DNA of 64,000 nt from an uncultured Myxococcales bacterium (GCA_965601515.1 CBFCWN010000007.1:4992-68991); one strand, 5' to 3'; numbered from the stretch's first letter, positions 10,570 through 62,854 are shown. Program-made: numbers and translations. The notes: generated by a model from the letters alone, not told the origin.

Positions 10570-13116
10570 GTGACCAAGCAGAACCTCCTCGTCGTCGATG
10601 CCGACCCCCGCAGCCTGCGCGTGCTCGAAGTCAGCCTACGCAACGCGGGCTATAACGTCGCCGGCTGCCCGAGCGTGGGAAAAGCTTTCGAGATCCTCCA
10701 CGCGAATAAGCCCGATCTCATCCTTTCGGATACCGCGTTCGCGGATATGGATGGCTTCCAATTCGTCGAACAGCTGCGTCAGAACAGCGATTGGGCGGAG
10801 ATCCCGTTCATGTTCCTGTCGAGCGACGGGTCGATCGAGAGCAAGATCCGCGGCCTCGAGCTGGGCGTCGAAGACTACCTCACGAAGCCTATCTACATCC
10901 GCGAGGTGGTCGCGCGGGTCGGAATCGAGCTCGCGCGGCAGACCCGGGCCGGGCTCGCTCTGAAAAGCACCGACGGACGCACGCGCTTCAGCGGCTCACT
11001 CACGGAGATGAGCGTCGTCGACCTTCTGCAGACGATCGACGTGAGCCGAAAGTCTGGAGTGCTGACGCTCATCGCCGCCGACGGGCAGGAAGGCATGATC
11101 TCGTTCGACTCCGGCGCCGTCATCAACGCGATGGTCGAAGACCTTCGGGGCGAGGATGCGATCTACCGTCAGCTCCTGTGGCGGGAAGGTACGTTTGACC
11201 TCGAGTTCCGACAGGTGAGCCTGAGCGAGCGGACCGTACACCGAACCACGCAGGCGCTTCTGATGGAGGGCATGCGACGGCTCGACGAGTGGAGCCGTCT
11301 GTCCGAGCTTCTGCCTCCCTTCACGAAGGTGCTCGAGCTCGACGCCGAGATGCTTCGAGAGCGACTGCGCGAAATGCCTGACGACCAGAACCAGATGGTA
11401 CGGCTGATCGACGGGGAACGGACGATCGGCGAGGTGATTCGTGCACACGGGGGCGACCACGTGGATGCGCTTCGCAAGTTCGTCGATCTCTACTTCGAGG
11501 GGATGGTCCGCGAGGTCGGCGAGATCAAAGACTCGATTCCCGTGTTGGCCGAGGCGTTCGTCGTTTCGTCGGCGCCGCCGCCACGCGAAGGCATCAATAC
11601 GATTCCCGGGCCCGGCGGCGTTTCGGGCGCCAACGTCTCGGTCCCTGGCGCTCCTGGGCTTCCCGAGGTGTCGAAAACTTCGATCACGGCTCCCGACATC
11701 CCCTCGGTCGCGGATTCGCTCGCGGCGACGGTCATTGCGCCAGCGTCGGAGTCTCCGGGCGCGCCGTTGTCCGTTCCGGCATCGGCTCCCGTGCCCGGCT
11801 CGACACACCCTTCCGATCAGGTGACGACGCCGGTGTCGCTGCCTTCCCCGAAGCTCGACGCCACCGACATCTCCGATGAGGAGATCACGACGCCCTCGGG
11901 CCGTTCGGCGCCGCCACCGCCCAACACGAAGAAGGGCTGGAAGCCGGCGCCGCCTCCCGCGGCTGGCGGCTCCAACCGCACGCGCCAGCAAACTCCGCGT
12001 GGATTTCAGCAGGCAAGTCCGGAACGCTCGTCGTTTTCGGGCGGCACCATTCTCAACTGGTCGGACCGTCTCACGAACCTCGACGAGGGAGCAGACGACG
12101 GCGGGCGTGAAACCGTCGAGATGGGGAAGTGGGACGACTCGCTCGAGGAGCTCCGAAGCGATCCTGACGTCGACGAGGCGATCGAAGCGATCGATTCGGA
12201 TCCGCCCCCTGGCCCGTTCGTTCGTTCGACTCCACCAGGTGCGCCGCCGGAGGAAGATGCGGTACAGGCGAAACGAGACACGCCTGCGCAGGAGGACTCG
12301 GCCGAACCGGAAACCGCAGACGAGCCGGATGACGTCGACCCGAACTATCACGAGCCGGACGACGTGGACCCTCCGCCGCTCACCTACGAGCAGGTGTTCG
12401 AGTCCGAGGAGGACGCAAGCATCCGCGCGCCACGCGCCGTCGAGCCGACCTCGATCGTCGTTGCCGGAAACGCGAAGCCGAGCGTGTTCCCATGGGTCCT
12501 GCTGCTGATGGCCGTGGTGTTGGGGGCGAGCGCGGTGGCCTTCGTCGTCACCCAGCGACGAGAGCCGGCAGCCGTGGCTACACCGAGTTCAGAGCCCGTC
12601 GTCCTGCCCGACCCCGCAACGGTCCTTGCTGCGGAGCCCGAAGTGGCCGCGGATACCGAGACGGTGACAGCGTCCGCCCGGCCGGAGCCCGAACCGGCAC
12701 CGGACCAGGTACTCGACCAGGTACCCGAACCACTGCCGGTCGAAGATCCCGATGCGATCTACCCAGAGACGGGCGCTCCGGACACGTATGCGGCTCAGCT
12801 CGAGCTCGCACGTCGGCTGAAGCGAGGGTCGCGCGCGACGGCGGCCTACCGGCGTGCGATCGCGTTGAATCCAGAGGGGTCCGAAGCGCTCGCCGAGCTC
12901 GGTCGATTGATGCTCGCTCGACAGCACACTCGGGAGGCGACCGAGCTTGCGGAGCGCGCGACCGCGATCGATCCGAGCAACTCGCTCGCGTGGGTGACGC
13001 TCGGGGCCGCGCGACAGATGCGCGGCGATCGGCAGGGCGCGCGCCAGGCCTACCAGAGCTGCTCGAAGCTCGGAAGAGGCCGATACGTGTCCGAGTGCCG
13101 CGCCATGCTGCGCTGA
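10570..13116 (+). CDS. Response-regulator receiver, DUF4388, Pro-rich linker, single TM segment and C-terminal TPR protein
   Basis: The start is GTG. The receiver reads LLVVDADP...DLILSDTAFADMDG...FLSS...LTKP. The DUF4388 signature is FSGSLTEMSVVDLLQTIDVSRKSGVLTL. About 300 aa of low-complexity P/S/A/E sequence follows. The TM segment is VFPWVLLLMAVVLGASAVAFVV. TPR repeats lie at the C-terminus (YRRAIALNPEGSEALAELGRL...). Confidence 0.85.
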   Translation: MTKQNLLVVDADPRSLRVLEVSLRNAGYNVAGCPSVGKAFEILHANKPDLILSDTAFADMDGFQFVEQLRQNSDWAEIPFMFLSSDGSIESKIRGLELGVEDYLTKPIYIREVVARVGIELARQTRAGLALKSTDGRTRFSGSLTEMSVVDLLQTIDVSRKSGVLTLIAADGQEGMISFDSGAVINAMVEDLRGEDAIYRQLLWREGTFDLEFRQVSLSERTVHRTTQALLMEGMRRLDEWSRLSELLPPFTKVLELDAEMLRERLREMPDDQNQMVRLIDGERTIGEVIRAHGGDHVDALRKFVDLYFEGMVREVGEIKDSIPVLAEAFVVSSAPPPREGINTIPGPGGVSGANVSVPGAPGLPEVSKTSITAPDIPSVADSLAATVIAPASESPGAPLSVPASAPVPGSTHPSDQVTTPVSLPSPKLDATDISDEEITTPSGRSAPPPPNTKKGWKPAPPPAAGGSNRTRQQTPRGFQQASPERSSFSGGTILNWSDRLTNLDEGADDGGRETVEMGKWDDSLEELRSDPDVDEAIEAIDSDPPPGPFVRSTPPGAPPEEDAVQAKRDTPAQEDSAEPETADEPDDVDPNYHEPDDVDPPPLTYEQVFESEEDASIRAPRAVEPTSIVVAGNAKPSVFPWVLLLMAVVLGASAVAFVVTQRREPAAVATPSSEPVVLPDPATVLAAEPEVAADTETVTASARPEPEPAPDQVLDQVPEPLPVEDPDAIYPETGAPDTYAAQLELARRLKRGSRATAAYRRAIALNPEGSEALAELGRLMLARQHTREATELAERATAIDPSNSLAWVTLGAARQMRGDRQGARQAYQSCSKLGRGRYVSECRAMLR

Positions 13117-19979: not shown

Positions 19980-22418
19980 ATGCTCCGGGTCGCAAGGGAA
20001 CGGCGCGCGTGGGTGCTGGCAGCGCTCGTCGTGCTCATCGTCGGGGCGGTGCTTTGGTTTTTCGGTGCTCCGTACGCAAAAGCGAGAGCCGAGCGTGCCA
20101 TCGGTGCGCGTCTTGGCATGGTTGCGACCATTGGTGAGCTAGACCTCTCGATGTCCCGAGCCGAGCTTCGAGGCGTTGAACTGCGCGGACTCGAAGGCGG
20201 TCTGACGGTGCGCATCGAAAAGCTCACGGCTGACGTCAACGCGCTCGCTGCGCTCTTCAAGGGGGCGGGCGCGGTTGGTGCCGTTCGCGCTCGCGCGGTG
20301 GACGTCGACCTCGACCTCGCAGATGCAGGTGCCGCGGGCTCTCTTTCGTCGATCCGCAATCGTCTTGCGCGCCGTTCATCGGTCAAGTCAGACGGTGGCG
20401 GAACGTCGCCTTCTCGGGGCGGACGCGCGTACGACGTCAGCGCGATCGAAGTGGACGTCGCAGACGCGTCGGGTCCGATGCTCTCGGTACGTGACGCTGC
20501 GCTTGTCAAAGAGGGCGATCGGGTGACGTACTTCGCCGAAGAGACGCTGCTCGGCGAGCTCGACCACGATCATGTCCGAGCGGGTCCGCTCGAGGTGACG
20601 CTCGAGCGCAGCGATGGAGTCTGGGTACTCGATTCCTTCGAGCTTGCCGGTGGCCGAGTTCGCTCGATGCGCGACGCGGACACGGAGCAAGAGGCGTTGG
20701 CGCTGCGGGTGCGCGCCGCAATTCGGACCGTGCGTGGATCGCCGGAGCCTACAGACGCGACCGACGAGCCCTCAACCGAACCCGTAGCGGCGACCGACGA
20801 GCCATCGACCGAACCGGTATTCGTGCCGGCCGAGCCTACAGCCGCGCCCGCTTCCTCTCGTCGGCTGTTCTCGAGGTTGGCGCCAGACGCCGAGGTCAAG
20901 GTTCGGGGCGTCGACCTCGAAAGCAGGACCACAGAGGACGGTCGAATCGAACGCATCCGCGGGCTCGATGTTTCTCTGAACGGGCGCGGCGACGGGTGGT
21001 TCCGCATCGAAGCGAATGGGGAAACCACCCGAGGTGGCGTTCTGACGGTGGACATGAGCGTGCATCCCGACGACGCCCGTGCCGAGGGAAGCATTGGACT
21101 GCGTCGGTTATCGTTGGCGCTGATCGCGCCGTTTGTCCCCGAGGTGCCGTTTTACGAGCCTGAGGTCGGCTCGTTTAGCGCCGAGCTCGAACTCGTGGCC
21201 GAGTCCACGGACCGTATCGCGATCGAAGGCGGGTTTCGCATCGAGGAGCTCGGCCTCTTCGACGAGCGCATAGCCGCCGATCCGATCGAGCACGTTGGAG
21301 TCGCCGCGCGAGGCAAGGGGGCGTGGCACCCGAACGAGCGACGCCTCGAGATCGAGCTCGCGACGGTGCGGATGAATGACGCGCAAATGATGCTCGAAGG
21401 CGAGGTGGAGCGTACGCCAGAGCACTATCGAGTCGACCTCACGGCGAAGCTTCCACCTACCGATTGCAACGACGTCGTGAGCGCAATCCCGCGCGATGTC
21501 CTGCGTTCGCTCTCGCGTTTTCGGTGGGTCGGGAACTGGAGCGCTCTGACGCACCTCTCGCTCGACTCGCGTGACCTTCAGGCGACCGAGCTCTCGATTC
21601 GCGTTCGAAACCTGTGCGAGTTCACCGCTGCGCCGAAATGGGTCGCCGTCGAGCGCTTCCAAGAGCCCTTTCGTCATCGCGTCGTCGAGCCGGACGAAAC
21701 GGTCTTCCGAATGCGTACTGGGCCCACGACGGACAACTGGGTGGCCTTCGAGGAGATCAGTCCGTTCGTCGTTCCTGCTGTCATCAGTCATGAAGACGGA
21801 GGCTTCTTCGACCATGGCGGCTTCGCACCGTGGGCGATTCGCGATGCGCTCGTTCGCAACCTCGAGGAGGGTCGGTACGTCGTTGGGGCAAGCACCATCT
21901 CCATGCAGCTTGCGAAGAATCTCTACCTCAAGCGCGAAAAGACGATCGCACGCAAGGCGCAAGAAGTGCTCCTTACCTGGTGGCTCGAGAGTCAGCTGAC
22001 CAAGGAGCAGATCCTCGAGCTGTACCTGAACGTCATCGAGTATGCGCCCGGCGTCTACGGCTTACGCAACGCAGCCGCGTACTACTTCGGTCGAGAGCCC
22101 ATCGAGCTCAGCCCGGCGGAGTCCGCGTTCCTCGCCTGCGTTCTCCCTTCGCCCAAGAACTACTACGTTTCGTTCGAGAGAGGAAAGCTGACGCGGCCGA
22201 TGAAGAATCGCTCGAAGCGGCTGCTCGAACACATGGCGAAGCGGGAGCGGATCGGCCCCGACGCCTTGGCCTACGGACTCGCCGAGCTCGAAGACTTTCA
22301 ATTTCGCAAGGAGGGTGACCCGCCGCCGTCGCCTCGGATTCTGCCGCCGCTCGGGGCCCCCGAAGAACCGCTCCCCGAAGATCTCGATCCGTATGAGGCG
22401 CTCTTCCTCGCCCCCTGA
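19980..22418 (+). CDS. Large membrane-anchored protein with a C-terminal GT51 peptidoglycan glycosyltransferase domain and no transpeptidase domain
   Basis: The N-terminal TM segment is WVLAALVVLIVGAVLWFFG. About 580 aa of unassigned sequence follows. The GT51 motifs are ISHEDGGFFDHGGF...RYVVGASTISMQLAKNLYL...RKAQEVLLTWWLE...KEQILELYLNVIEY. Confidence 0.85.
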   Translation: MLRVARERRAWVLAALVVLIVGAVLWFFGAPYAKARAERAIGARLGMVATIGELDLSMSRAELRGVELRGLEGGLTVRIEKLTADVNALAALFKGAGAVGAVRARAVDVDLDLADAGAAGSLSSIRNRLARRSSVKSDGGGTSPSRGGRAYDVSAIEVDVADASGPMLSVRDAALVKEGDRVTYFAEETLLGELDHDHVRAGPLEVTLERSDGVWVLDSFELAGGRVRSMRDADTEQEALALRVRAAIRTVRGSPEPTDATDEPSTEPVAATDEPSTEPVFVPAEPTAAPASSRRLFSRLAPDAEVKVRGVDLESRTTEDGRIERIRGLDVSLNGRGDGWFRIEANGETTRGGVLTVDMSVHPDDARAEGSIGLRRLSLALIAPFVPEVPFYEPEVGSFSAELELVAESTDRIAIEGGFRIEELGLFDERIAADPIEHVGVAARGKGAWHPNERRLEIELATVRMNDAQMMLEGEVERTPEHYRVDLTAKLPPTDCNDVVSAIPRDVLRSLSRFRWVGNWSALTHLSLDSRDLQATELSIRVRNLCEFTAAPKWVAVERFQEPFRHRVVEPDETVFRMRTGPTTDNWVAFEEISPFVVPAVISHEDGGFFDHGGFAPWAIRDALVRNLEEGRYVVGASTISMQLAKNLYLKREKTIARKAQEVLLTWWLESQLTKEQILELYLNVIEYAPGVYGLRNAAAYYFGREPIELSPAESAFLACVLPSPKNYYVSFERGKLTRPMKNRSKRLLEHMAKRERIGPDALAYGLAELEDFQFRKEGDPPPSPRILPPLGAPEEPLPEDLDPYEALFLAP
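20756..20818 (+). repeat. Tandem 33-nt-period coding repeat (ATDEPSTEPV x2) inside the GT51 gene
   Basis: Two 30-nt copies (20756-20785 and 20789-20818) differ only at three third-codon positions (ccc/cca, tca/tcg, ccc/ccg). Confidence 0.9.
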
Positions 22419-22518
22419 GCCTGCCATTTATTGGGACCACCCATTCGGGTAGGGGTAAACACGAGCCAGGGGGAGGCCCGCCGATGAATCGGTGGTGCCG
22501 AGTTTCGTCCGAGGAAAG

Positions 22519-24405
22519 ATGCGAGGGTTGCTTGGCGTGGTCGTGAGGTCGAGGTTTGCATACATCTCGTTGATCTTCGGGGTTCTGATTCAGTCGACCA
22601 TCGTGGCTGCAGCGGAGCCGGATCCCGCGGTCGTCGTCATTACTCCCGGGGACGACGCAACGCAGGGGGCTGCGATTCGCATCGACGGAGAGCCGTCGGG
22701 CAATGTGCCGCTTCGCAAGACGCTCACGCCGGGTCGACACCTGATTCAGGTCGGTAAGCGAGGCTTCGTGACGTTCTCCAAGTGGGTCACCCTCAGCTCG
22801 GCCGAGGTTCTCAACCTGCCCGTCGTGCTTCAGCCACAGGCCCCCACCACCGGATCGCTCTTGATTTCCGCCGACGTAACCGGGCTGCCTGTGCGAATCG
22901 ACGGTGAGCTTCGTGGGAACACGCCTCTTGTCGTCGATGGCCTTGCGGAAGGCGAGCACGCAGTCGTCATCGAGAGTCCCGGGGAGGGCTACAAGCCGTT
23001 TTCGACGATCGTCACGGTTCGAGCCAACGAACGTGCCACCGTCGAAGCGAATATTCGCATTGCTCCGGACCTCGGAAGTCTCCGCGTCATTGCCAGCGTC
23101 CCGGGCGCCATCATCAGCCTCGACGGGGAAGACATCGGTGTCGCTCCGGCCGCGCGCGGGAGCCTCACGCCAGGCGAGCACATCGTCACCGCTCGCGCGA
23201 CGGGCTATGAGCCCGTCGCGCAGACCGTCACCGTCATCGCAGGTCGCGAGCGCGTCGTGTCGTTGCGCTTCACGACGCCCAGCAACGATGTCAGCCGAAT
23301 CCTCGTACGGGCGAGTGTTCCTGACGCGGTCGTGACCGTGGACGGCATCGACTACGGGAATCCTCCCGTCAACATCGAACCCGCCGAGCCTGGGACGCAT
23401 TCGATCGTCGTTCAGGCGCCCGGGTATCGTGAGGTTCGGCGCTCGTGCAGCGTTGGCCCAGGCCGAAACTGCGATGTGTATGCGGACCTCAACGCGCTCG
23501 GCGTTCCCGTTCGAGTCGAAGCGAACGTCGCAGGTGCCCAGCTCTTCATCGACGGCGAGCCTCGAGGTCCCGTTCCCTGGGAGGGCGACCTTCCGGAGGG
23601 TTCCCACGCAATCGAGGTGCGGGCGGAAGGCTACGAGAGCCACACCGAGAGCATCGTCCTCGAAAAGTCGTCTCGCGTCCGCCTCATTCAGGTGATTCTC
23701 GGGGCCACGGTGGCCACCCCCGACACCACCCAACGAAACAAGGCCGCCGAGCGAGAAGACCCGCTTCGAAACACGGTGACGCACGCCGGCGGGCCCATCG
23801 CTCCGGGTATCGCGACGCTCGACCTGTCGACGGGATGGCCATGGCTTGCCTCACTCGGACTCCGTGCGGGCCTCACCGACTTCCTCGACGTCGGGCTCTA
23901 CGTCGCGACGTTCGGGCGTCTCACGGATTTCTGGCTGAGCACGAAGGCGGGCTGGAAAGTCTCTCGTTACTTCTCGCTTGGAGGTGATCTCCAAGTCGGT
24001 GGCGGCATCGGTCCGTCACAGCGCGACGAGAACGGGGTGCGGCACCCGACCAACAACTTCTTCATTAGCCTCGACGCGATCTTCAGCCTGCACTACCCGC
24101 CGCGCGGCGCTTTCTCGCTGTGGATCGCGATGGACTTCAACAGCGACCGATGGGATTTCGACGGTCGCAACAATCGCGTGTCTGTGACAGGCTCCCGTCA
24201 GAACGTCGTCCGAGCCAGGCTCGGCGGTTCGTTGGAGTTCGTCGTGACTCGGAAGTGGAACGTGTGGGTCGAGGTGGAAGGCATCGTGGCGGGCGATCGG
24301 CGGCGCATCCTGGGTGACGTGTTCGGCGGCGGCCGCGCCGATTCCATGGTCTACGGACAGCTTGGCGCGACCTTCAAATTCGGCAGCCCCAAGGGATCGG
24401 AATGA
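22519..24405 (+). CDS. Secreted protein with five PEGA domains and a C-terminal beta-barrel-like region
   Basis: The signal peptide is MRGLLGVVVRSRFAYISLIFGVLIQSTIVAAA. There are five repeats of the IxIDGxxxGxxPL...LxPGxHxIxV type. The C-terminal roughly 200 aa has alternating hydrophobic strands and ends ...YGQLGATFKFGSPKGSE. ATG 22519 has GAGGA upstream; the track start is 22492. Confidence 0.8.
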   Translation: MRGLLGVVVRSRFAYISLIFGVLIQSTIVAAAEPDPAVVVITPGDDATQGAAIRIDGEPSGNVPLRKTLTPGRHLIQVGKRGFVTFSKWVTLSSAEVLNLPVVLQPQAPTTGSLLISADVTGLPVRIDGELRGNTPLVVDGLAEGEHAVVIESPGEGYKPFSTIVTVRANERATVEANIRIAPDLGSLRVIASVPGAIISLDGEDIGVAPAARGSLTPGEHIVTARATGYEPVAQTVTVIAGRERVVSLRFTTPSNDVSRILVRASVPDAVVTVDGIDYGNPPVNIEPAEPGTHSIVVQAPGYREVRRSCSVGPGRNCDVYADLNALGVPVRVEANVAGAQLFIDGEPRGPVPWEGDLPEGSHAIEVRAEGYESHTESIVLEKSSRVRLIQVILGATVATPDTTQRNKAAEREDPLRNTVTHAGGPIAPGIATLDLSTGWPWLASLGLRAGLTDFLDVGLYVATFGRLTDFWLSTKAGWKVSRYFSLGGDLQVGGGIGPSQRDENGVRHPTNNFFISLDAIFSLHYPPRGAFSLWIAMDFNSDRWDFDGRNNRVSVTGSRQNVVRARLGGSLEFVVTRKWNVWVEVEGIVAGDRRRILGDVFGGGRADSMVYGQLGATFKFGSPKGSE

Positions 24406-25055
24406 TCGAGGGCCACTTCATCGTCCTCGAAGGCATCGACGGATCGGGGACCACGACTCAATGCTCGATCCTCTCGGATCGCTTCGCGGACCGCGGACTA
24501 CCTACGCACGTGACCCGCGAGCCGAGCGACGGTCCGGTCGGCGTCCTGATTCGGCAGATCCTCACCGGGCGCGTGGTGACACCCGGTCAGCACGGCTCGC
24601 GGCCGCCGAGCTGGGCCACCATGGCCGCTCTCTTTGCCGCCGACCGGCTCGACCACCTCGAAGCGGAGGTCAACCCGAACCTTCTCGACGGCGTCACCGT
24701 CATCTCCGATCGATACGATCACTCTTCGGTGGCCTACCAGACCGTGAGCAGCGAAGGGCAGGCCGACGTCACCGCGTGGGTGCTCGATCTCAACCGACAC
24801 GCGCGACGACCCGACCTCACGCTGGTACTCGACGTCGACCCGAAGGTGGCTGCAACCCGGCGCGATTCGCGATCGGGAAACCCCGAGCTCTACGAGGTCA
24901 GCGAGATGCAGGCGGAGTTGGCTCGCTTCTACGCGAAAATCGACGAACTTTTCCCAAATGATAACATTGTGCATATCGACGCGAATCGAGGCGTCGACGA
25001 AGTGACCGAGGCGGTTTGGTCCGAGGTGTTGAAGCTTCGAAGGGAGTCGACATGA
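24402..25055 (+). CDS. tmk: Thymidylate (dTMP) kinase
   Basis: The sequence is FIVLEGIDGSGTTTQCSILSDRFADRGLPTHVTREPSDGPVG... There are ATGA overlaps with both flanking genes. Confidence 0.92.
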   Translation: MIEGHFIVLEGIDGSGTTTQCSILSDRFADRGLPTHVTREPSDGPVGVLIRQILTGRVVTPGQHGSRPPSWATMAALFAADRLDHLEAEVNPNLLDGVTVISDRYDHSSVAYQTVSSEGQADVTAWVLDLNRHARRPDLTLVLDVDPKVAATRRDSRSGNPELYEVSEMQAELARFYAKIDELFPNDNIVHIDANRGVDEVTEAVWSEVLKLRREST

Positions 25056-25618
25056 GCCGCGATCTGATTGTGTGGAGTGCCGCGTTTCTGGTGACCGTCG
25101 TCATCGGCTGCGAGAACAGCAAGCTGCAGCGTGAGATGATGGGCGATTCGACGTGGGAAACCTCGAGCGGCTACGAGGACATCGAGGTGCACGAGAAGAA
25201 GAATCGGACCGACGAAAGGTGGGAGAAGGAAAACGCTCCGATGCAGGGCGAGGAGCCGCAGAGCAGTCTCGGCTACCCGCGCGTCCGGTCGGGCTACATC
25301 GACCGCTCGGATCTCGTCCCCGTCCTCGACGCGGGGCTCGGCCGCTACCTACAAAACGTCGAGACTCAGCCCGAGTTCCACCAGGGCGTCTTCGTCGGAT
25401 TTCGCATCGTCAGCCTGTTCCCGGGTGAGCTCACCTACGCCTCACTCGACCTGCGACCCGGCGACATCGTCACTCGGGTGAACGGGCGCTCCATCGAGCG
25501 TCCCGAGCAGGCGGTTGCGGTTTGGGAAGCGCTCCGCACCGCATCGAATCTCGTCGTCCACTACCAGCGTGGCGAAGACGAGCATGCGCTCCACTTTCGG
25601 ATCGTTGACGAGAGTTAG
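25052..25618 (+). CDS. Lipoprotein with a PDZ-like (GspC-C-terminal-like) domain
   Basis: The lipobox is VVIGC. The C-terminal half is GVFVGFRIVSLFPGELTYASLDLRPGDIVTRVNGRSIERPEQAVAVWEAL. Confidence 0.6.
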   Translation: MSRDLIVWSAAFLVTVVIGCENSKLQREMMGDSTWETSSGYEDIEVHEKKNRTDERWEKENAPMQGEEPQSSLGYPRVRSGYIDRSDLVPVLDAGLGRYLQNVETQPEFHQGVFVGFRIVSLFPGELTYASLDLRPGDIVTRVNGRSIERPEQAVAVWEALRTASNLVVHYQRGEDEHALHFRIVDES

Positions 25619-25639
25619 GTCCGACTCCACGGTTCGGCG

Positions 25640-26575
25640 GTGAAGTCCACGAACCGCTTCGCCATCGCGGCGACCACGCTTCTCGGTTACACCGTAGCCG
25701 TCGTGCTCTGGGGCGCGTTCGTGCGGGCGTCGCTGTCAGGGGATGGCTGCGGCGACCATTGGCCGCTCTGTAACGGTGTCGCGCTCCCCGTCGAGCCGAC
25801 CACGAAGACCATCATCGAGCTCACGCATCGGGTCACATCGGGCCTGTGCTGGATCGGCACGTTGGTCCTGTTCGTGTGGGCTCGTCGCGGATTCCCGCGG
25901 GGACACGCGACTCGAAGCGCTGCCGGATGGAGCCTTTTCTTCATGACCACCGAAGCGCTGGTCGGCGCCGGTCTCGTGCTGTTCCGCATGGTCGCGTCGA
26001 ACCCGTCAACGGCGCGGGCAGCATGGATGAGCGCGCATCTCATCAACACGTTCCTATTGCTGGCCGCCCTTACGTGGATGGCGGCCAGCGCTTGGAAGCC
26101 CGAGGGCGTCCGCTTCGCCGGCAGCACGTGGTCACGCCGAGCCTTTGGGGTCGCCGCGATCGCGGTGCTCTTCGTCGGCGTGAGCGGCGCGGTCGCTGCG
26201 CTTGGCGACACGCTCTTTCCCGCATCCAGCCTGGCCGAGGGGATACGTGAGGATTTCTCGCCGACCTCTCACGTCTTTCTACGCCTGCGCATTTGGCATC
26301 CGGTGATCGCCGTTCTGGGCTCCGGATACTTGCTTTGGTTGGCCAGCGCGCTGATGGCACAGCATGACGGTGTGCGACTGCGACGCCTCGGATTAACCCT
26401 TGGCTCGCTCGTGCTTCTTCAAATCGGCGTTGGTTTACTCAATGTTTGGTTGCTCGCGCCCGTGTGGATGCAGCTCTTCCACCTTCTGATGGCGGACGCG
26501 ACCTGGATCGTTCTGGTACTGCTCGCACTTTCCTCACCGCCTCGCAGCTCCGATGTTACCCTAGCGGCGTCGTGA
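25640..26575 (+). CDS. ctaA: Haem A synthase (COX15/CtaA family)
   Basis: The start is GTG. It is a polytopic protein with ...FVRASLSGDGCGDHWPLCNG... and paired His-containing helices (ELTHRVTSG, SAHLINTF, RIWHPVIAV). Confidence 0.88.
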   Translation: MKSTNRFAIAATTLLGYTVAVVLWGAFVRASLSGDGCGDHWPLCNGVALPVEPTTKTIIELTHRVTSGLCWIGTLVLFVWARRGFPRGHATRSAAGWSLFFMTTEALVGAGLVLFRMVASNPSTARAAWMSAHLINTFLLLAALTWMAASAWKPEGVRFAGSTWSRRAFGVAAIAVLFVGVSGAVAALGDTLFPASSLAEGIREDFSPTSHVFLRLRIWHPVIAVLGSGYLLWLASALMAQHDGVRLRRLGLTLGSLVLLQIGVGLLNVWLLAPVWMQLFHLLMADATWIVLVLLALSSPPRSSDVTLAAS

Positions 26576-27636
26576 GCGACCCGTACCTCGGCAAAGAAGT
26601 AGCCGGCCAATTCCGAATCGTCGAGAAGATCGGCAAGGGCGGGATGGGCGCCGTTTACAAGGCCGAGCAGCCCGACATGAATCGCTACGTCGCGATCAAG
26701 ATCCTCCACTCCCGTTATCTCTCGCGCAGCGATTTGGTGTCTCGGTTTCGGCGTGAGGCCCGAGCGATGAGTCAGCTCTCGCATCCCAACACGGCGCGGG
26801 TCTTTCTCTACGGTCAGCTGGAGGACGGCGCTTGCTACTTCGTCATGGAGCACCTGGTCGGGCAGAACCTCTCGCAAATCGTCCGCGCCAAAGGCCGCAT
26901 GGATCCGACACGTGCGATTCGGATCATGATTCAGGTCTGCGGCGCGCTCGAGGAAGCGCACCAAGCGGGTATCGTGCATCGTGACCTCAAGCCCGAGAAC
27001 ATCTTCATCACGACGCAGGGCGGCATCCGAGACTTCCCGAAGGTGCTCGACTTCGGGCTCGCCAAGGTGACCGAGCGTCAGATGCGGCCCGGCTCCATGG
27101 TGCTGACTCAGCAGGGGATGGTGTTCGGTACGCCCGAGTTCATGAGTCCCGAGCAGGCGCACGGAAAAACGCTAGACGCGCGCTCCGACATCTACTCCCT
27201 CGGTGTGATTCTCTACGAGCTGCTGACCGGGAAGCTTCCTTTCGATGCCAAGCAGCCGATCGAATACATCCAGCTGCACGTCAACGCACCTCCGATCCCA
27301 CTCTCCGAACGGTGCCCGGAGGCCGATTTTCCAGACGGTCTCGAGGAAGTCGTGATGGCTGCCCTCGCGAAAAAGCCAGAAGAGCGCTACACGAGCGCCG
27401 CCGCGTTTGCGGCCGCTCTCGAATCCGTGCTTCAGGTCGATGCGGGGGAGGGCGGGTCGATCACGCTCCCGACGCCTGTCCCCGCGGCCCCGGCGCCTCA
27501 GCCGGCGCCACCCATCCAGCAGGCTGTACAGGTGCCGGCCGCCTCCAAGGCACCCTGGATCGTTCTTGGCATCAGCGTCGTGCTTGCTGTGGCCGGCGTT
27601 CTGGCGCTTTTGGCGGCCTACAGCGCGGGCTCTTGA
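26572..27636 (+). CDS. Hanks-type Ser/Thr protein kinase with a C-terminal transmembrane tail anchor
   Basis: A GTG start overlaps the ctaA stop (GTGA). Kinase motifs present are GKGGMGAVYKA, VAIK, HRDLKPEN, DFGLA and SPEQ. The tail is a Pro/Ala linker followed by APWIVLGISVVLAVAGVLALLAAYSAGS. Confidence 0.9.
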   Translation: MSDPYLGKEVAGQFRIVEKIGKGGMGAVYKAEQPDMNRYVAIKILHSRYLSRSDLVSRFRREARAMSQLSHPNTARVFLYGQLEDGACYFVMEHLVGQNLSQIVRAKGRMDPTRAIRIMIQVCGALEEAHQAGIVHRDLKPENIFITTQGGIRDFPKVLDFGLAKVTERQMRPGSMVLTQQGMVFGTPEFMSPEQAHGKTLDARSDIYSLGVILYELLTGKLPFDAKQPIEYIQLHVNAPPIPLSERCPEADFPDGLEEVVMAALAKKPEERYTSAAAFAAALESVLQVDAGEGGSITLPTPVPAAPAPQPAPPIQQAVQVPAASKAPWIVLGISVVLAVAGVLALLAAYSAGS

Positions 27637-27727
27637 CCCCTGCGGGCGGTGCTCCTACGCCTTCCGTTCCGGGACCTTGACCGTGTTTGGTGAGGGCGTC
27701 ACAGTGGCGCCGCTTCCGGCGGAACCG

Positions 27728-28609
27728 ATGACCACAGCTACTCGACCAGCGACCATGATGCTGACCGTCCGCGACCTCGTCGCGCTGACGAAGCCCCGCA
27801 TCACGATGATGGTCCTCGTCACGGCTGCCGGCGGGATGTGGCTTGCGCCAGGGTCGCTCGACCTCGGCTCGGTCCTGGTCATGCTCCTGACGACGGGCAT
27901 GGTGGTAGGCGCGGCGAACACGCTCAACTGCTACCTCGAGCGGGATAGCGACCGGCTGATGCCTCGCACCGCGAAGCGCCCGTTGCCAGACCGTCGACTT
28001 GCGCCGTCTTGGGCACTGACCCTTGGAATCGCGATGGGGCTCTTTGCGGTACCGACCTTGACGCTCGCGGTGAACCCCACGACCGGGCTGCTTGGCGCGA
28101 TCGCGCTCGTGAGCTACGTGGCGATCTACACGCCCATGAAGCAGTACACCCCGGCGGCGCTGTTCGTCGGCGCGCTCCCCGGGGCCCTTCCGCCACTGAT
28201 GGGCTGGACCGCCGTGACCGGTAGCGTCGCAGCTCCCGGCCTGGTGCTCTTCGGCATTCTCTTCTTTTGGCAGATCCCCCATTTCATCGCGATCTCCGTC
28301 TTCCGGCAGGAAGAGTACGAGCGCGCCGGCCTGAAGGTGCTGCCGTCGGTGCGCGGCATCCGGACCGCGAAGGTGCAGGCCACGATTTACGCTGGCGCGC
28401 TCTGGGCCGTTTCTCTTCTGCTCGTCCCATACGGTCTGGCAGGCATGATCTACCTCGGGGCCGCTGTGCTGCTCGGGGGGTACTTCTTCTGGGCCGCCGT
28501 TCGCGGCTTCTGGGTCGAGGACTCCGACGCGTGGGCCATGAAGCTCTTCGTCGCGTCCCTGATCTATCTGACCGCGCTCTTCGCGGCACTGATCATCGAT
28601 GCGCTCTAA
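27728..28609 (+). CDS. ctaB: Protohaem IX farnesyltransferase (haem O synthase)
   Basis: The sequence carries LTKPRITMMVLVTAAGG...NCYLERDSDRLMPRTAKRPLP...WQIPHFIAIS. The start is ATG 27728; upstream in-frame GTG alternatives exist. Confidence 0.92.
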   Translation: MTTATRPATMMLTVRDLVALTKPRITMMVLVTAAGGMWLAPGSLDLGSVLVMLLTTGMVVGAANTLNCYLERDSDRLMPRTAKRPLPDRRLAPSWALTLGIAMGLFAVPTLTLAVNPTTGLLGAIALVSYVAIYTPMKQYTPAALFVGALPGALPPLMGWTAVTGSVAAPGLVLFGILFFWQIPHFIAISVFRQEEYERAGLKVLPSVRGIRTAKVQATIYAGALWAVSLLLVPYGLAGMIYLGAAVLLGGYFFWAAVRGFWVEDSDAWAMKLFVASLIYLTALFAALIIDAL

Positions 28610-29189
28610 GTCGCTCCTTCTCGCAGTCCTCGTCGCTTTGTCCCTCTCGGCATGCACCAAGAGGAAGGCCGAGGACGTTCCCGTGCTGACCACGCTCCCC
28701 GAGTTCGCCCTCGTGGACCAAGACGAGCAGGCGTTCACGCTCGACACCATGAAGGGTGACATCTGGGTCTCGGCCTTCGTGTTCACGCACTGCAACTCCA
28801 CGTGCCCCCGACTTACGGCCCACATGAAAGGCCTCCAAACACGTCTTTCCGACGTGCCGAGCGCCAACTTCGTGTCCGTGAGCGTCGACCCGCGCAACGA
28901 CACCCCCGAGGTGATCAAGGCGTACATGTCGAAGAACGAGATCGATGAGAGCAACTGGCGTTTCGTCACCGGTGAGGAAGACTCGATTCGTCGCGTCGTC
29001 GTCGACGGTTTCAAGGTCGGCATGGGGGACGAAGAGAGCGTGGCCCAGGGGGGTGATGACATCATGCACAGCAACGCGTTCGTGCTGGTCGACACCGACG
29101 CCCGTGTCCGGGGGTACTACCGCGCCAACAACGATGGGATCGCCGATCTAGAGCGGGATCTCAGAGCGATCGCCGCCGGTCCCGAGTAG
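28599..29189 (+). CDS. SCO1/SenC copper chaperone (lipoprotein)
   Basis: The lipobox is LSLSAC. The thioredoxin-fold motif is FVFTHCNSTCP. It also carries ...SVDPRNDTPEVIKAY...HSNAFVLVD. It overlaps ctaB by 11 nt. Confidence 0.9.
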   Translation: MRSKSLLLAVLVALSLSACTKRKAEDVPVLTTLPEFALVDQDEQAFTLDTMKGDIWVSAFVFTHCNSTCPRLTAHMKGLQTRLSDVPSANFVSVSVDPRNDTPEVIKAYMSKNEIDESNWRFVTGEEDSIRRVVVDGFKVGMGDEESVAQGGDDIMHSNAFVLVDTDARVRGYYRANNDGIADLERDLRAIAAGPE

Positions 29190-29226
29190 CGTTGATGCGC
29201 TCGGGCTTCGGTGTTAAGCGCACCGC

Positions 29227-30435
29227 ATGAGTGAGAGCATCCCAGTTGCCGAGCGGCTCAGCGTCGTCAAACCCTCTGCCACCGTTGCCGTCGCCCAGCG
29301 TGCGCGCGAGCTCAAGGCCGAGGGCATCGATGTGCTTTCCTTCAGCGTTGGGGAGCCGGACTTCGACACGCCCGAGCACATTCGCGAAGCGGCGAAGCAG
29401 GCGATCGACTCGGGACAGACCCGATACACAGCCGCGCGCGGCGTCGTGCCCCTGCGCGAGGCGATTTGCGAGGCGTCTGCCAAGCGACGTCCCGGTGTCA
29501 CCTACACGCCGGCCGAGTGCATGGTGTCGGTAGGCGCGAAGCACACGCTCTTCAATCTCGCGCTTGCGCTCTACAATCCCGGCGACGAAGTGATCATCCC
29601 CGCACCGTACTGGGTGAGCTACCCGGAGCAGGTTCGCCTCGCCGGCGCCAACCCGATCATCGTTCAGACCACCGAGGACGACGGCTTTCGCATGACCCCG
29701 GAAGTGCTCCGCGAGACGATCACGCCGAAGACCAAAGCATTGCTCCTGTGCTCGCCCTCGAATCCGACCGGTGCGGCGTACAGCGGCGAGCAGCTTTGCG
29801 AACTTGCGGACGTGGCCGGTGAGCACGATCTCTGGATCATCGTCGACGAGATCTACGGTCAGCTCGTGTACGGCGGCTTCGAACAGAAATCGATCGTAGA
29901 CGTAGCGCCAGAGCTTCGCGACAAGATCATCATCGTCGACGGTGTCAGCAAGACGTTTGCCATGACCGGATGGCGTATCGGTTGGATGCTCGGTCCGGAG
30001 TACGTCACCAAGGCCTGCGAGAAGATTCAGGGCCAGGCGACCACCAATCCAAGCTCCGTAGCGCAGCAGGCAGCGATTGCGGCTCTCACGGGCCCCTGGG
30101 CGCCGATGGAAACGATGCGGTTGGCGTTCGAAGAGCGCCGCAGCATCATCGTCGACGGCTTGAACGCCATCGACGGCATCAGCTGTCGCCTGCCCGAGGG
30201 CGCATTCTACGCGTACCCGAACGTCCAGGGGCTTCTTGGCAAGGAGGGCGGCGGCAAGGTGCTCGAGACCGACCTCGATTTGGCCGGCTACCTCCTCGAG
30301 GAGGCGCGTTGCGCGGTCGTTCCGGGGACGGCATTCGGTTCCCCCGGCTTCGTCCGCATGTCGTACGCCGCCGCGAACGACATGATTCGCGAAGGCCTCA
30401 ACCGGATCGGCGAGGCGGTTTCGAAGCTCAGCTAG
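29227..30435 (+). CDS. Class I PLP aminotransferase (aspartate aminotransferase type)
   Basis: The sequence carries GEPDFDTPEHIREAA...YTAARGVVPLREAI...CSPSNPTGAAY...VSKTFAMTGWRIGW, which includes the PLP lysine. Confidence 0.9.
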   Translation: MSESIPVAERLSVVKPSATVAVAQRARELKAEGIDVLSFSVGEPDFDTPEHIREAAKQAIDSGQTRYTAARGVVPLREAICEASAKRRPGVTYTPAECMVSVGAKHTLFNLALALYNPGDEVIIPAPYWVSYPEQVRLAGANPIIVQTTEDDGFRMTPEVLRETITPKTKALLLCSPSNPTGAAYSGEQLCELADVAGEHDLWIIVDEIYGQLVYGGFEQKSIVDVAPELRDKIIIVDGVSKTFAMTGWRIGWMLGPEYVTKACEKIQGQATTNPSSVAQQAAIAALTGPWAPMETMRLAFEERRSIIVDGLNAIDGISCRLPEGAFYAYPNVQGLLGKEGGGKVLETDLDLAGYLLEEARCAVVPGTAFGSPGFVRMSYAAANDMIREGLNRIGEAVSKLS

Positions 30436-31480
30436 GCGCGCGAGCGCTTCGCTCCCGTGCCGCCACGATGCTGGTGCGCGCCAGCAGTGCGACGGCAAGC
30501 ACGGTGAGGATCAGCGCGCTTGGCGTCCTCGGTCCGTATCCGGCGCTCAGGAGGAGCATGAGGGCGGCGCCAAGCTGACGCCGGGAAGAGTCTTTCGACA
30601 GAATCGCCGCAACGGTCACCGCCCAGCCGATGCCGAGCGGGATCGCGTAGAGAATCGCGACGCGCTCGGGCAGAAGGTCGAGCTTCAATGCCCCGTAGAG
30701 CAGAGTCGACAACTCGGGGCCGACGGTTTTGCTCAGCAGCGCGAACTCGACGGTGACGATCGCGGCCGTAACTGCGGAAAGGGCGAGCGCGACTTTGCCC
30801 CGAAGCGTGCCCCAAGGAATCCGAAGAAAGAACGCGGCCACGATCGGTACCGCCAGATACGCGAGCTCACCCGACCAATGAAACGCGTTGGCGAGCCGTG
30901 CAGTCTGTGGCCAGAAAAATCGCTCACCGATCAGCGTGGTGCTCATCGCAGCGAGCCCGCTCAGGGATGCCACCAGCGTGAGAATCATGGTGGCGATCAG
31001 TGCCGGGGCGGAGCGCCAGTGAAGACCTGCCAAGACGAGAAGCACGATGACGGCGTGGGAGAGCGCAGCCACGACCAGCACGAGCTCTTTGCGAGTCAGG
31101 GCCATGGGAAGGATCGTCATCAGCGTGACGATCGGGATCAGTACCCAGCCGAAGCCAGCCAGGCTTGCTCGCGCAGACATCGGAAGGCCGCTCTGCCGCG
31201 ATGCGAGTGACCCGAGGGCGAAACCGAGCGCGACGAGACCCGCGACGACGCTGAGGTTGAGCGCGAACCGACCGGTGTCGGACATGTGTCGAAGGGTGTC
31301 GACGGACCAGCTCGAGTGGCCGAGCTTGATCAGGAAACCGTTGAGCGTCAGGTCGGCCACCGCGGCCACCGCGGCCATCCAGGCGAGCGGAGGAACGGCG
31401 GTCAACCGATTCATCGGGGCTGCTGGGGCGTGCGCGACCGAGGTCATGGATGGAAGCGCTGAATCAATACCGTCGGTCAA
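30428..31480 (-). CDS. Polytopic integral membrane protein, function unknown
   Basis: The 350-aa ORF has about 9-10 hydrophobic segments and high GC3. I recognised no family motif. The start is uncertain. Its 3' end overlaps the convergent aminotransferase gene by 8 nt. Confidence 0.6.
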   Translation of the reverse strand: MTDGIDSALPSMTSVAHAPAAPMNRLTAVPPLAWMAAVAAVADLTLNGFLIKLGHSSWSVDTLRHMSDTGRFALNLSVVAGLVALGFALGSLASRQSGLPMSARASLAGFGWVLIPIVTLMTILPMALTRKELVLVVAALSHAVIVLLVLAGLHWRSAPALIATMILTLVASLSGLAAMSTTLIGERFFWPQTARLANAFHWSGELAYLAVPIVAAFFLRIPWGTLRGKVALALSAVTAAIVTVEFALLSKTVGPELSTLLYGALKLDLLPERVAILYAIPLGIGWAVTVAAILSKDSSRRQLGAALMLLLSAGYGPRTPSALILTVLAVALLARTSIVAARERSARAPS

Positions 31481-31540: not shown

Positions 31541-32527
31541 GTGACCGTCGCTCGCCAGGATTGGACCCTCCACGAAGCACGCGCGCTTCACGACCTTCCC
31601 TTGACCGACCTGCTGTTCCGGGCGCAGGAGGTGCATCGCGCCACGCAGCCGCGAGACTCCGTCCAGCTCTGCTCGCTGCTCTCGATCAAGACGGGCGCAT
31701 GCCAGGAAGACTGCGCGTACTGCCCGCAGTCTTCGAAGTACGACACCGGAGTCGACGCCGAGCGCCTGATGGACGTCGAAGACGTCCTTCGGAAAGCGCG
31801 CGAGGCCAGAGACGCTGGAGCGAGCCGATTTTGCATGGGCGCGGCATGGCGAAGCCCGAAAAAGGGGAGCCGACAGTTCGAGCAGGTTCTCGAGATGGTC
31901 CGTGGGGTACGCGAGCTCGGCATGGAAGCCTGCGCAACCCTCGGGATGCTCGACGACGAGCAGACCCAGGACCTCAAGGACGCGGGTCTCACGGCGTACA
32001 ATCACAACCTCGACACGTCGGAGTCCTTCTACGGCGAGATCATCACCACGCGGACGTACACCGATCGGCTCGAAACCATCGCACGTGTTGCCGCCGCCGG
32101 AATTTCGGTCTGTGCTGGCGGAATCATCGGCATGGGTGAGAGCATCGACGATCGCGTGGCGATGCTCGTCACGCTCGCGAATCTGGATCCGCAGCCCGAG
32201 AGCGTTCCGGTCAACGCGCTCGTCGCCGTCGAAGGCACGCCGCTCGCCGATCAGAAGCCGGTCGATTCGCTCGAGCTCGTTCGCATGTGCGCGACGGCGC
32301 GCATCATGATGCCGGGGGCGCGCGTGCGTCTGTCCGCGGGACGCGCCTCGATGAACCGTGAGTCGCAGCTGCTGTGCTTCATGGCGGGCGCCAACAGCAT
32401 CTTCTTCGGAGACAAGCTCCTCACCACCGGGAACCCCGACCACGATGCCGACATGGCGTTGCTTCGCGAGGCGGGGCTGCGACCGCTGGATCCTGAAAAC
32501 GCCGCCCCACCCAGCGCAGCGGAGTAG
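31541..32527 (+). CDS. bioB: Biotin synthase
   Basis: The start is GTG. The radical-SAM motif [11 protein letters not shown] is present. Other matches are ...FCMGAAWR...YNHNLDTS...[11 protein letters not shown]. Confidence 0.95.
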
Positions 32528-32604: not shown

Positions 32605-32610
32605 GTGGAC

Positions 32611-32811
32611 ATGCTCATTTGCCACTGCCACGCCGTGAACGACCGGACGATTCGCCAGTGCGTCGATGCGGGCGCGCGAAGCGGGAACGAGATTCGCGAA
32701 GCATGCGGAGCAGGTGGGACCTGCGGCGGTTGTCGGCAGCAGATCGATCGTCTGATCGAGCTTCATCACGGTGCTCGCGACGCGATGGAAGCGCGCGCTT
32801 CGCAAGGGTAA
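32611..32811 (+). CDS. bfd: Bacterioferritin-associated ferredoxin, (2Fe-2S) BFD-like
   Basis: The sequence [18 protein letters not shown]...[14 protein letters not shown] carries the four-Cys BFD pattern. The track start (GTG 32605) adds 2 residues. Confidence 0.88.
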
Positions 32812-32902: not shown

Positions 32903-33376
32903 ATGAAGGGCAACGACGAAGTCATCAACCTGCTCAACGAGGTGCTCACCTCGGAGCTCACCGCGATCAACCAGTACTTCATCCACTCGAAGATGTGCCA
33001 GGACTGGGGGTTCGCGCGTCTCGCCGCAAAGAAGCGCGAGGAATCCATCGAAGAGATGAAGCACGCAGACGCGGTGATCGAACGTATTCTGTATCTCGAA
33101 GGCGTTCCCAACATGCAGCGCTACTTCCCGGTCAAGGTCGGCGAAGACGCCATCGAGCAGCACCGACTGGACCTCGAAGTCGAGTACGACGCGGTGAAGC
33201 GTCTCAACGACGGCATCGCGCTTTGCCGTGACAAGGGCGACAACGGCAGCCGCGAGCTGCTCGAGGGGATCCTGCTTCAGGAGGAAGAGGGAATCGACTG
33301 GCTGGAGGCGCAGCTTCACCTCGTCGAGGTTCTCGGCGCCGAGCGGTATCTCTCCGAGCAGATCGGCGGCAACTAG
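32903..33376 (+). CDS. bfr: Bacterioferritin
   Basis: The sequence is [37 protein letters not shown]...[22 protein letters not shown]... Confidence 0.96.
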
Positions 33377-43634: not shown

Positions 43635-43690
43635 TGGAGGTCGGAAGCGTACACTGTGCAGAGTGGGGGCAAAAGCGCTATGAGACGAGC

Positions 43691-49378: not shown

Positions 49379-49424
49379 TCGAAAGCGGGCCGTCCCCCTT
49401 ATCCTTCGCTACACTGAAAGGACC

Positions 49425-62803: not shown

Positions 62804-62854
62804 GAGCGTTCACCGCTCGCGTATCGCGAGCAACCGCGCTACACCCCCGGCGTG

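Follow-up and report, generated by a model that had tools for sequence, protein, structure and literature searches.

Within a 64,000-nucleotide stretch of DNA from an uncultured Myxococcales bacterium (the window), a gene for a Ser/Thr protein kinase lies between ctaA and ctaB, which encode haem A synthase and haem O synthase, and ctaB is followed by the copper-chaperone gene sco1 (Table 1). An earlier interpretation made from the DNA alone (the sequence-only reading) had described a complete kinase with all catalytic motifs at this site, and every coordinate and motif was confirmed. CtaA matches its Pfam family over the full length (E 2.8e-32; 112.5 bits against a cut-off of 29.9; profile positions 5–322 of 322), and its seven hydropathy peaks and eight His residues are those of a polytopic member of the family; a Cys37/Cys44 pair is located in the first outer loop. 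The NCBIfam profile search returned no equivalog match for CtaA. CtaB exceeded the cut-off of the NCBIfam equivalog cyoE_ctaB (TIGR01473; 279.8 against 210.3 bits), matched Pfam UbiA at E 1.4e-57, and has homologues that carry the name haem O synthase, the matches listed being close relatives with 78–100% identity. An alternative ATG at 27755, giving 284 aa, is chosen by some gene callers. Sco1 matches PF02630 (E 2e-26; 93 bits; cut-off 22.8) and contains CNSTC at residue 65, an LSAC lipobox and the His within DIMHSNAF, as a Sco1/SenC protein.

The junctions between the four genes were also as previously read. The GTG start of the kinase and the TGA stop of ctaA overlap as GTGA (26572–26575), 91 nt separate the kinase stop from the ctaB ATG, and sco1 overlaps ctaB by 11 nt. 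The GTG start is backed by relatives, since in five of them (L001, L003, L004, L005, L029) an in-frame stop lies three codons 5' of the homologous GTG; it also agrees with the 353 aa at which most database orthologues are called.

The kinase matched Pfam Pkinase over residues 15–278 (E 1.7e-49; 169 bits; cut-off 31.7). The Hanks motifs are complete, namely GKGGMG (21–26), VAIK with K43, RFRRE with E62, HRDLKPEN (136–143), DFG (160–162) and SPE (192–194), and are joined by the later subdomain motifs DIYSLG (206–211, with D206) and R272, which makes this a Hanks-type Ser/Thr kinase by its motifs. A Lys in the catalytic loop, here DLKPEN, predicts Ser/Thr specificity (PMC2887360). The catalytic domain is followed by a Pro/Ala linker and a transmembrane (TM) helix (residues ~328–349 of 354), after which only five residues remain; hydropathy and composition agree with the earlier description of a single C-terminal helix with almost no tail. 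With one C-terminal hydropathy peak and none at the N-terminus, the protein is predicted to be tail-anchored. Among proteins of solved structure, PknB, PknA and StkP match it best (E about 1e-52 to 1e-56). Membership in the PASTA-domain kinases was considered and rejected: the best NCBIfam model, the PASTA-kinase equivalog NF033483, scored 315.7 bits against a cut-off of 450, covered the catalytic part only (model positions 2–271 of 563), and just five residues follow the TM helix. Neither a PASTA domain nor any sensor domain was found by Pfam scan and motif inspection.

Table 1. Features of the kinase locus, of the surrounding window and of other loci named in the text. Positions count from the first letter of the window unless a locus label is given.
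Feature	Position	Strand	Basis or remark
ctaA, haem A synthase (COX15/CtaA family), 311 aa	25640-26575	+	Pfam COX15-CtaA PF02628; stop TGA 26573-26575
Extended -10-like box TGTTACCCT (TGnTAnnnT)	26554-26562	+	inside ctaA coding sequence, 9 nt 5' of kinase GTG
Tail-anchored Hanks-type Ser/Thr kinase, 354 aa	26572-27636	+	Pfam Pkinase, motifs, TM peak, orthologue alignment; GTG 26572-26574, TGA 27634-27636
Kinase catalytic domain	26614-27405	+	Pfam Pkinase
Kinase Pro/Ala linker (residues 291-325)	about 27442-27546	+	49% Pro+Ala
Kinase single TM helix (predicted)	about 27553-27618	+	Kyte-Doolittle peak 2.87
TTGACC overlapping kinase stop, possible second -35-like box, weak	27633-27638	+	alignment of close relatives
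ctaB promoter-like element	27677-27705	+	TTGACC 27677-27682, 17-nt spacer, CACAGT 27700-27705; 51 nt 5' of the ctaB ATG
ctaB, haem O synthase / protohaem IX farnesyltransferase, 293 aa	27728-28609	+	TIGR01473, Pfam UbiA, homologue names; stop 28607-28609
sco1/senC, copper chaperone lipoprotein, 196 aa	28599-29189	+	PF02630 SCO1-SenC, CxxxC, lipobox; ATG at 28599
DUF748 + transglycosylase-domain protein, head of array	19980-22418	+	Pfam, NCBIfam
PEGA protein	22492-24405	+	Pfam, NCBIfam
tmk	24402-25055	+	Pfam, NCBIfam; 4-nt overlap with PEGA gene
GspC-like PDZ predicted lipoprotein, 200 aa	25016-25618	+	NF041515, E 1e-12 (below cut-off)
D-Tyr-tRNA deacylase-domain ORF, 373 aa	18823-19944	+	domain at residues 226-368 only
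DUF4388 response regulators, two	10570-13116; 49224-51497	+; +	
350-aa protein	30428-31480	-	about nine hydrophobic segments
Biotin synthase	31541-32527		
Bfd-like small ORF ([2Fe-2S]-type)	32605-32811	+	label judged from its sequence, no profile scan
Ferritin-family gene	32903-33376	+	probably bacterioferritin
Chlorite-dismutase-family protein	43634-44461	+	PF06778, E 3e-13
Multihaem c-type cytochrome-like proteins, two	45816-47975; 62852-64000	-; +	Cytochrome_C7/C554/c3 matches
Second Ser/Thr kinase, 1008 aa	51544-54570	+	zinc-ribbon, Pkinase, AAA_16, TPR domains
FliN-like/FliK-like genes	L011 3871-5859; L086 3287-4396, 5343-5927; L010 4800-5909		also in L083, L084, L087
ctaA, seemingly truncated or frameshifted	L002 5070-5825; L004 5176-5325		
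tmk with longer kinase directly after it	L030 5539-7671; L046 5033-7632; L055 4928-7629		kinases of 640-710 aa

In a protein search the kinase belonged to a tight family of proteins of about 353 aa with 67–91% identity, from metagenome-assembled genomes (MAGs) of Polyangiales/Myxococcota. A genome scan, with one genome per species, returned 31 loci at 56–90% identity to the window kinase, one in each genome scanned, followed by a gap, all other kinases being at most 51% identical. In neighbour-joining trees the 56–90% set formed a single clade on a long stem. All orthologues, including those of Sorangium cellulosum So ce56 and Byssovorax, have the same build of a catalytic domain, a variable Pro/Ala/Ser-rich linker and a C-terminal TM helix with a tail of 2–6 residues. 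The bimodal identities, the single clade and the uniform build together indicate that the kinase is an old conserved orthologue of the order rather than a recent insertion.

These genomes are crowded with kinase genes. Sorangium has 317 kinases, so that about every thirtieth gene encodes one, and the authors of that study caution against over-reading proximity (PMC2887360); at such a density, a kinase beside some operon is expected by chance. In the window, two kinase genes were found among about 58 open reading frames (ORFs) called over the 64 kb by a caller based on GC content at third codon positions. It might therefore be supposed that a decaying or inactive kinase, without function, had merely landed between ctaA and ctaB. 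This is very improbable, and is contradicted by the conservation data: the catalytic motifs are all intact, the length is fixed at about 353 aa over many metagenomic lineages at 67–91% identity, and both the TM anchor and an upstream cis-motif (below) are conserved. What goes beyond chance is that the adjacency of the kinase to cta genes is conserved across one subclade.

The neighbours of the kinase gene were mapped on all loci by tblastn and clustering of called ORFs, and six further lineages were added from metagenome contigs; loci are labelled L001 and so on, and W is the window's own locus. In the Polyangiaceae-type subclade, which includes Sorangium and Byssovorax (21 loci: L013–L028, L047, L077), there are no cta neighbours. 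In loci with readable flanks, its usual neighbours are a divergent pgeF (TIGR00726) and/or a co-directional PBP1A gene (TIGR02074, 539 bits), and in Sorangium So ce56 pgeF is divergent on one side and a class A PBP1A is co-directional on the other.

This context raises the question of a growth or cell-envelope kinase of the PknA/PknB kind, acting on peptidoglycan or division substrates, with the cta genes as incidental neighbours. Besides pgeF and/or PBP1A in most Polyangiaceae loci, such a role is suggested by the similarity to PknB, PknA and StkP, by the PASTA-kinase equivalog being the best NCBIfam model, by the transglycosylase-domain gene that heads the co-directional array in the window, and by the close relationship of the tail-anchored PkaB to Mycobacterium tuberculosis PknA, likewise tail-anchored and implicated in division and cell shape (PMC3087755). 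However, PknB is the best match for nearly every bacterial Hanks kinase and hence uninformative, the peptidoglycan neighbourhood is no less restricted to certain lineages than the cta one, and neither a PASTA or sensor domain nor a pstP/FHA/rodA/pbpA cluster is present. A transglycosylase/PBP neighbour common to the window and the Polyangiaceae was considered and rejected, as the window protein, whose gene is 4 kb away, shares only its transglycosylase domain with the Polyangiaceae PBP1A. We regard an envelope role as doubtful.

The loci L011 and L012 have no cta genes near the kinase either; in L011, FliN-like and FliK-like genes lie 5' and a glutamine amidotransferase gene 3' of it. It is in their sister clade of 18 lineages that the cta genes appear. 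In 15 of these (W, L001–L005, L029, L085, L006–L010, L084 and L086) ctaB, or ctaB–sco1, follows the kinase gene on the same strand. The three exceptions are L083, in which ctaB–sco1 is inverted and convergent with the kinase, and L081/82 and L087/88, which have a NosD-like or an M1 peptidase gene 3' of the kinase and no cta genes. All three are nested inside the cta-linked clade in the neighbour-joining tree, so that the link between kinase and ctaB probably had a single origin and has since been broken on at least three occasions. The ctaB–sco1 pair itself is intact wherever these genes occur in the loci, L083 with its inversion included. Adjacency wherever the orthologue occurs, as for a kinase–substrate pair, was not found, the cta neighbours being missing in the Polyangiaceae-type loci, L011, L012, L081/82 and L087/88. 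A comparison of the TM helices of orthologues with and without cta neighbours was uninformative, since the motif is the same in both.

The full order ctaA–kinase–ctaB–sco1 was seen only in the window's family (W, L001–L005, L029, L085). All close relatives keep it. The sequence-only reading had named absence of the kinase from this site in close relatives as a refuting result, and no such absence was observed; the kinase–ctaB–sco1 order reaches relatives at the level of Sandaracinaceae, whose Sco1 is only 30–43% identical. Among the otherwise complete MAG loci, ctaA appears damaged in L002 and L004 (Table 1) and the C-terminus of the L004 kinase is likewise frameshifted; these defects may be assembly errors rather than pseudogenes. 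Seven other lineages (L006–L010, L084, L086) have kinase–ctaB–sco1 with a different upstream region. In L084 and L086 a FliK-like gene on the other strand stands between ctaA and the kinase, a position taken in L083 by a small unannotated gene, likewise on the opposite strand; in L006 ctaA is inverted and 3 kb away, and it is not present in the upstream flanks examined for L007 (about 1.2 kb) and L010 (6 kb). The statement of the sequence-only reading that ctaA, ctaB and sco1 are normally contiguous is hence overstated, as the position of ctaA varies among these relatives. In Bacillus subtilis, too, ctaA is divergent from ctaB–ctaCDEF; ctaA and ctaB are not known to be universally contiguous.

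How ctaA came to abut the kinase can be proposed from the same loci. FliN/YscQ-like (FliMN_C) and FliK/YscP-like (Flg_hook) genes are divergently oriented 5' of the kinase in many relatives, and ctaA lies between the two in L084 and L086, as well as in L083, where the unannotated small gene takes the FliK-like place. The window's family has neither gene, and their loss there would have brought ctaA against the kinase. Direct contact with the GTGA overlap was found only in this family (W, L001, L003, L005, L029, L085), in which the overlap of ctaA stop and kinase start would have arisen on that occasion.

Conserved boxes upstream of both the kinase and ctaB emerged solely from comparative alignment, a generic promoter and terminator scan having returned nothing between the four genes. 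The first, an extended -10-like box, is located in the 3' end of ctaA. Of 33 orthologue loci, 27, drawn from both subclades, have its pattern TGnTAnnnT 6–15 nt 5' of the kinase start codon, against a chance expectation of about 0.04 per locus; the remaining six have a similar hexamer starting with TA but lacking an exact TGnTA (for example GGTAAGCT and GGTATTCT), five of them at comparable distance. In close relatives the pattern is retained while the flanking bases differ. Most members of the linked subclade have 6–7 nt between the box and the start, compared with 9 nt in the window, which would place the transcription start at or just 5' of the GTG. No Shine-Dalgarno-like sequence was seen in the upstream stretches of the kinase starts inspected. 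This suggests that the kinase has its own promoter giving rise to a leaderless or near-leaderless mRNA. The GTGA overlap had been taken to imply co-translation with ctaA. Given an overlap derived in one family, a -10-like box common to the whole orthologue family and no evident Shine-Dalgarno sequence, a separate leaderless transcript fits better.

The second box precedes ctaB (Table 1). The spacer between kinase and ctaB is otherwise poorly conserved, with a mean column identity of 45%, and yet TTGAC(C/G) was present in 12 of the 12 spacers first examined (11 aligned, plus L009) against a chance expectation of 0.02–0.12 per spacer, with a hexamer containing A/T 16–18 nt after it. The box also occurs 5' of ctaB in L084 and L085; in L086 an exact TTGAC match is missing at this place. 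Its presence 5' of the inverted ctaB in L083 indicates that it belongs to ctaB and not to the kinase. A strict sigma-70 scan did not report it. Another TTGACC, overlapping the kinase stop, is kept as TTCTTGACC in the aligned close relatives L001–L005 and L029, a conservation that could equally reflect coding or stop-codon constraint, and second TTGAC matches were found in L001, L003, L005 and L085. As regards a single operon, the four genes are co-directional with short gaps or overlaps and contain no terminator-like site between them, which makes read-through possible, and this may add to expression; yet boxes precede both the kinase and ctaB. The arrangement probably represents three transcription units: one ending with ctaA, the kinase, and ctaB–sco1 (with or without the aminotransferase gene that follows).

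Tight packing is not peculiar to these four genes. They belong to a nine-gene co-directional array with similarly tight junctions throughout, ctaA starting 21 nt past the end of the PDZ lipoprotein gene, which had no Pfam match, and an aminotransferase gene following sco1 as a further member. Since the array mixes tmk, PEGA, transglycosylase, ctaA, kinase, ctaB, sco1 and aminotransferase genes at similar spacing, close packing is here no sign of shared function. Moreover, the region as a whole is syntenic: tmk is found within 6 kb 5' of the kinase in most subclade-B loci, about as frequently as ctaB is found 3', and a PDZ-type gene lies beside tmk in fewer of them, directly after it in the window's close relatives and in several further subclade-B loci. 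An Rfam scan of 24000–30500 gave only a chance-level best match (E 0.54), hence no known RNA element in the spacers.

A kinase gene directly after tmk occurs in three other Myxococcota (L030, L046, L055), with the tmk stop overlapping the kinase start in L046 and L055. These kinases are longer and have a mid-protein TM helix and a PEGA-like ectodomain, an echo of the PEGA–tmk pair in the window. An ancestral tmk–kinase arrangement was considered and rejected, because these kinases reach only 42–47% identity and neighbour-joining trees do not place them as sister to the orthologue clade.

From the layout, the sequence-only reading had proposed phospho-regulation of haem O/haem A synthesis or of oxidase assembly. 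In the subclade with the arrangement, the tail-anchored kinase would accordingly phosphorylate CtaB and/or CtaA, or another oxidase-assembly factor at the same membrane, and so tune the supply of haem O/A or the assembly of aa3 oxidase; an example of a target would be the Thr-rich cytoplasmic N-terminus of CtaB, MTTATRPAT. The arrangement itself was found in all close relatives, and several observations are in line with the proposal: ctaB–sco1 follows the kinase co-directionally in 15 of 18 lineages, out to Sandaracinaceae MAGs, ctaA is immediately or closely 5' in the window's family and in L008, L083, L084 and L086, this adjacency is better conserved than that of other flanking genes, no terminator-like site intervenes, and the kinase is predicted to share its membrane with CtaA and CtaB. 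Precedents exist in pkn4–pfk (PMC2887360) and in the action of Staphylococcus aureus Stk1/Stp1 on GtrR (PMC12607789). The regulatory part fares less well. Orthologues of the same architecture at 56–71% identity reside in unrelated contexts, so the kinase predates the link and has a wider distribution; within its own clade the link has disappeared or been inverted on at least three occasions; kinase and ctaB each have a conserved promoter-like box; the TM helix motif is unaltered where the cta neighbours have been lost; and the array is a mixed one. Neither a phosphatase or FHA gene, at the locus or elsewhere in the window, nor oxidase structural genes were found in the 64 kb. A literature search combining ctaA/ctaB or haem O synthase with Ser/Thr kinases returned no paper that links such a kinase to ctaA or ctaB and no description of phospho-control of haem A in bacteria, in keeping with the earlier remark that this had not been described. 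We consider that the layout is weak evidence for kinase control of haem A synthesis and the proposal possible but unlikely. A related reading, in which one subclade (the window's family and Sandaracinaceae-like lineages) recruited the ancient kinase as a membrane regulator of haem O/A synthesis, or of copper and haem insertion into aa3 oxidase, through cytoplasmic segments of CtaB/CtaA, also appears unlikely. If true, this would give the first bacterial example of haem A biogenesis controlled by Ser/Thr phosphorylation, and would mean post-translational control of haem A supply.

The gene identities, motifs, architecture, orthologue distribution, synteny and two conserved cis-motifs are best explained, in our estimate with a probability of roughly 55%, by an autonomously expressed, sensor-less, tail-anchored RD (Arg-Asp) kinase at the inner face of the membrane, whose cta neighbourhood is the inherited synteny of one subclade. 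According to this model, transcription of the kinase would start mostly at its own extended -10 promoter and yield a leaderless mRNA devoid of a Shine-Dalgarno sequence. The C-terminal helix would insert into the membrane and leave the catalytic domain on the cytoplasmic side. Activation may then come about by trans-autophosphorylation of activation-loop threonines (LTQQG...GTPEF), and the kinase may phosphorylate proteins at the inner face of the membrane. With the cta neighbourhood inherited in one subclade and ctaB–sco1 as a separate unit, the layout does not identify CtaA, CtaB or Sco1 as substrates. The kinase is more probably a general or pleiotropic membrane-surface kinase than a dedicated regulator of haem A.

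Several points weigh against this explanation. The kinase–ctaB order has been kept in 15 of the 18 lineages while Sco1 diverged to 30–43% identity and other flanking genes turned over, a degree of conservation above what neutral synteny typically shows and one that would agree with selection for co-location. In L008, L083, L084, L086 and the window's family, cta genes are present on both sides of the kinase. A myxobacterial kinase is known to share an operon with its enzyme substrate (pkn4–pfk), and myxobacterial kinomes are generally poor in synteny, so that a conserved kinase neighbourhood stands out (PMC2887360). Finally, the promoter and leaderless-mRNA readings derive from motif conservation.

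The finding is real but mainly a curiosity of gene order. It defines a well-conserved orthologue group of sensor-less tail-anchored kinases in Polyangiales, against a background of generally poor kinome synteny (PMC2887360). These kinases share, family-wide, an extended -10-like box that would fit expression from a leaderless mRNA. The case also serves as a worked example that proximity of kinase and other genes in myxobacterial genomes establishes no regulatory link without comparative and RNA data.

Elsewhere in the window, the chlorite-dismutase-family gene gave weak, sub-threshold matches to HemQ/coproporphyrin-type haem synthase models and is a possible further haem-pathway gene, 15 kb from the cta genes. 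The block of biotin synthase, Bfd-like and ferritin genes is syntenic in the window's family (L001, L029, L085). The 350-aa protein belongs to no Pfam or NCBIfam family, and five close relatives have a similar gene (L001, L004, L005, L029 and, by position, L085). Of the two large DUF4388 response regulators, one also has TPR and the other MshEN and an HD-GYP-like HD_5 domain, and the first of the two cytochrome-like proteins has a C-terminal TPR. The D-Tyr-tRNA deacylase ORF has either an over-called start or an unannotated N-terminal extension.

The kinase is of a known architecture and the cta and sco1 genes are ordinary members of their families. Canonical cta/cox clusters, for example ctaA / ctaB–ctaCDEFG of B. 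subtilis, have the same kinds of genes, and the window resembles them in its ordinary ctaA, ctaB and sco1 and its tight ctaB–sco1 pair; it differs in containing no oxidase structural genes in 64 kb and in having a kinase gene between ctaA and ctaB. With the PASTA kinases PknB, StkP and Stk1 the window kinase shares the catalytic domain, the RD type and a Thr-containing activation loop, whereas it has no PASTA repeats or extracytoplasmic domain and falls below the 450-bit cut-off, and so is not a member. In S. aureus, Stk1/Stp1 acting on GtrR (HemA) is an instance of Ser/Thr phosphorylation controlling bacterial haem synthesis (PMC12607789), but it concerns the first committed step of haem synthesis rather than haem O/A, the kinase is of the PASTA type, and genomic linkage is not mentioned in that paper. 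The pair pkn4 (pktD1)–pfk of Myxococcus xanthus is alike in that a myxobacterial Ser/Thr kinase gene adjoins the gene of a metabolic enzyme. There, however, phosphorylation of the enzyme has been shown and synteny extends over seven myxobacteria (PMC2887360), whereas the synteny of the arrangement in the window is confined to one subclade and repeatedly broken, and each gene has its own promoter-like box.

Tail-anchored Ser/Thr kinases are themselves an established class that includes PkaB (SCO2973) and SCO3860 of Streptomyces coelicolor and the PknA-like kinases (PMC3087755). These agree with the window kinase in having an N-terminal catalytic domain, no signal peptide, and a single C-terminal TM helix with little or no ectodomain (PMC3087755), and the kinase domain of M. 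tuberculosis PknA matches that of the window at E about 1e-53. In contrast to the PknA type, the window kinase lies outside any division cluster of the pknA–pknB–pbpA–rodA–pstP type and has no adjacent phosphatase or FHA gene. What sets it apart from PkaB and PknA is its place in an orthologue group specific to Polyangiales and, in one subclade of that group, beside cta genes.

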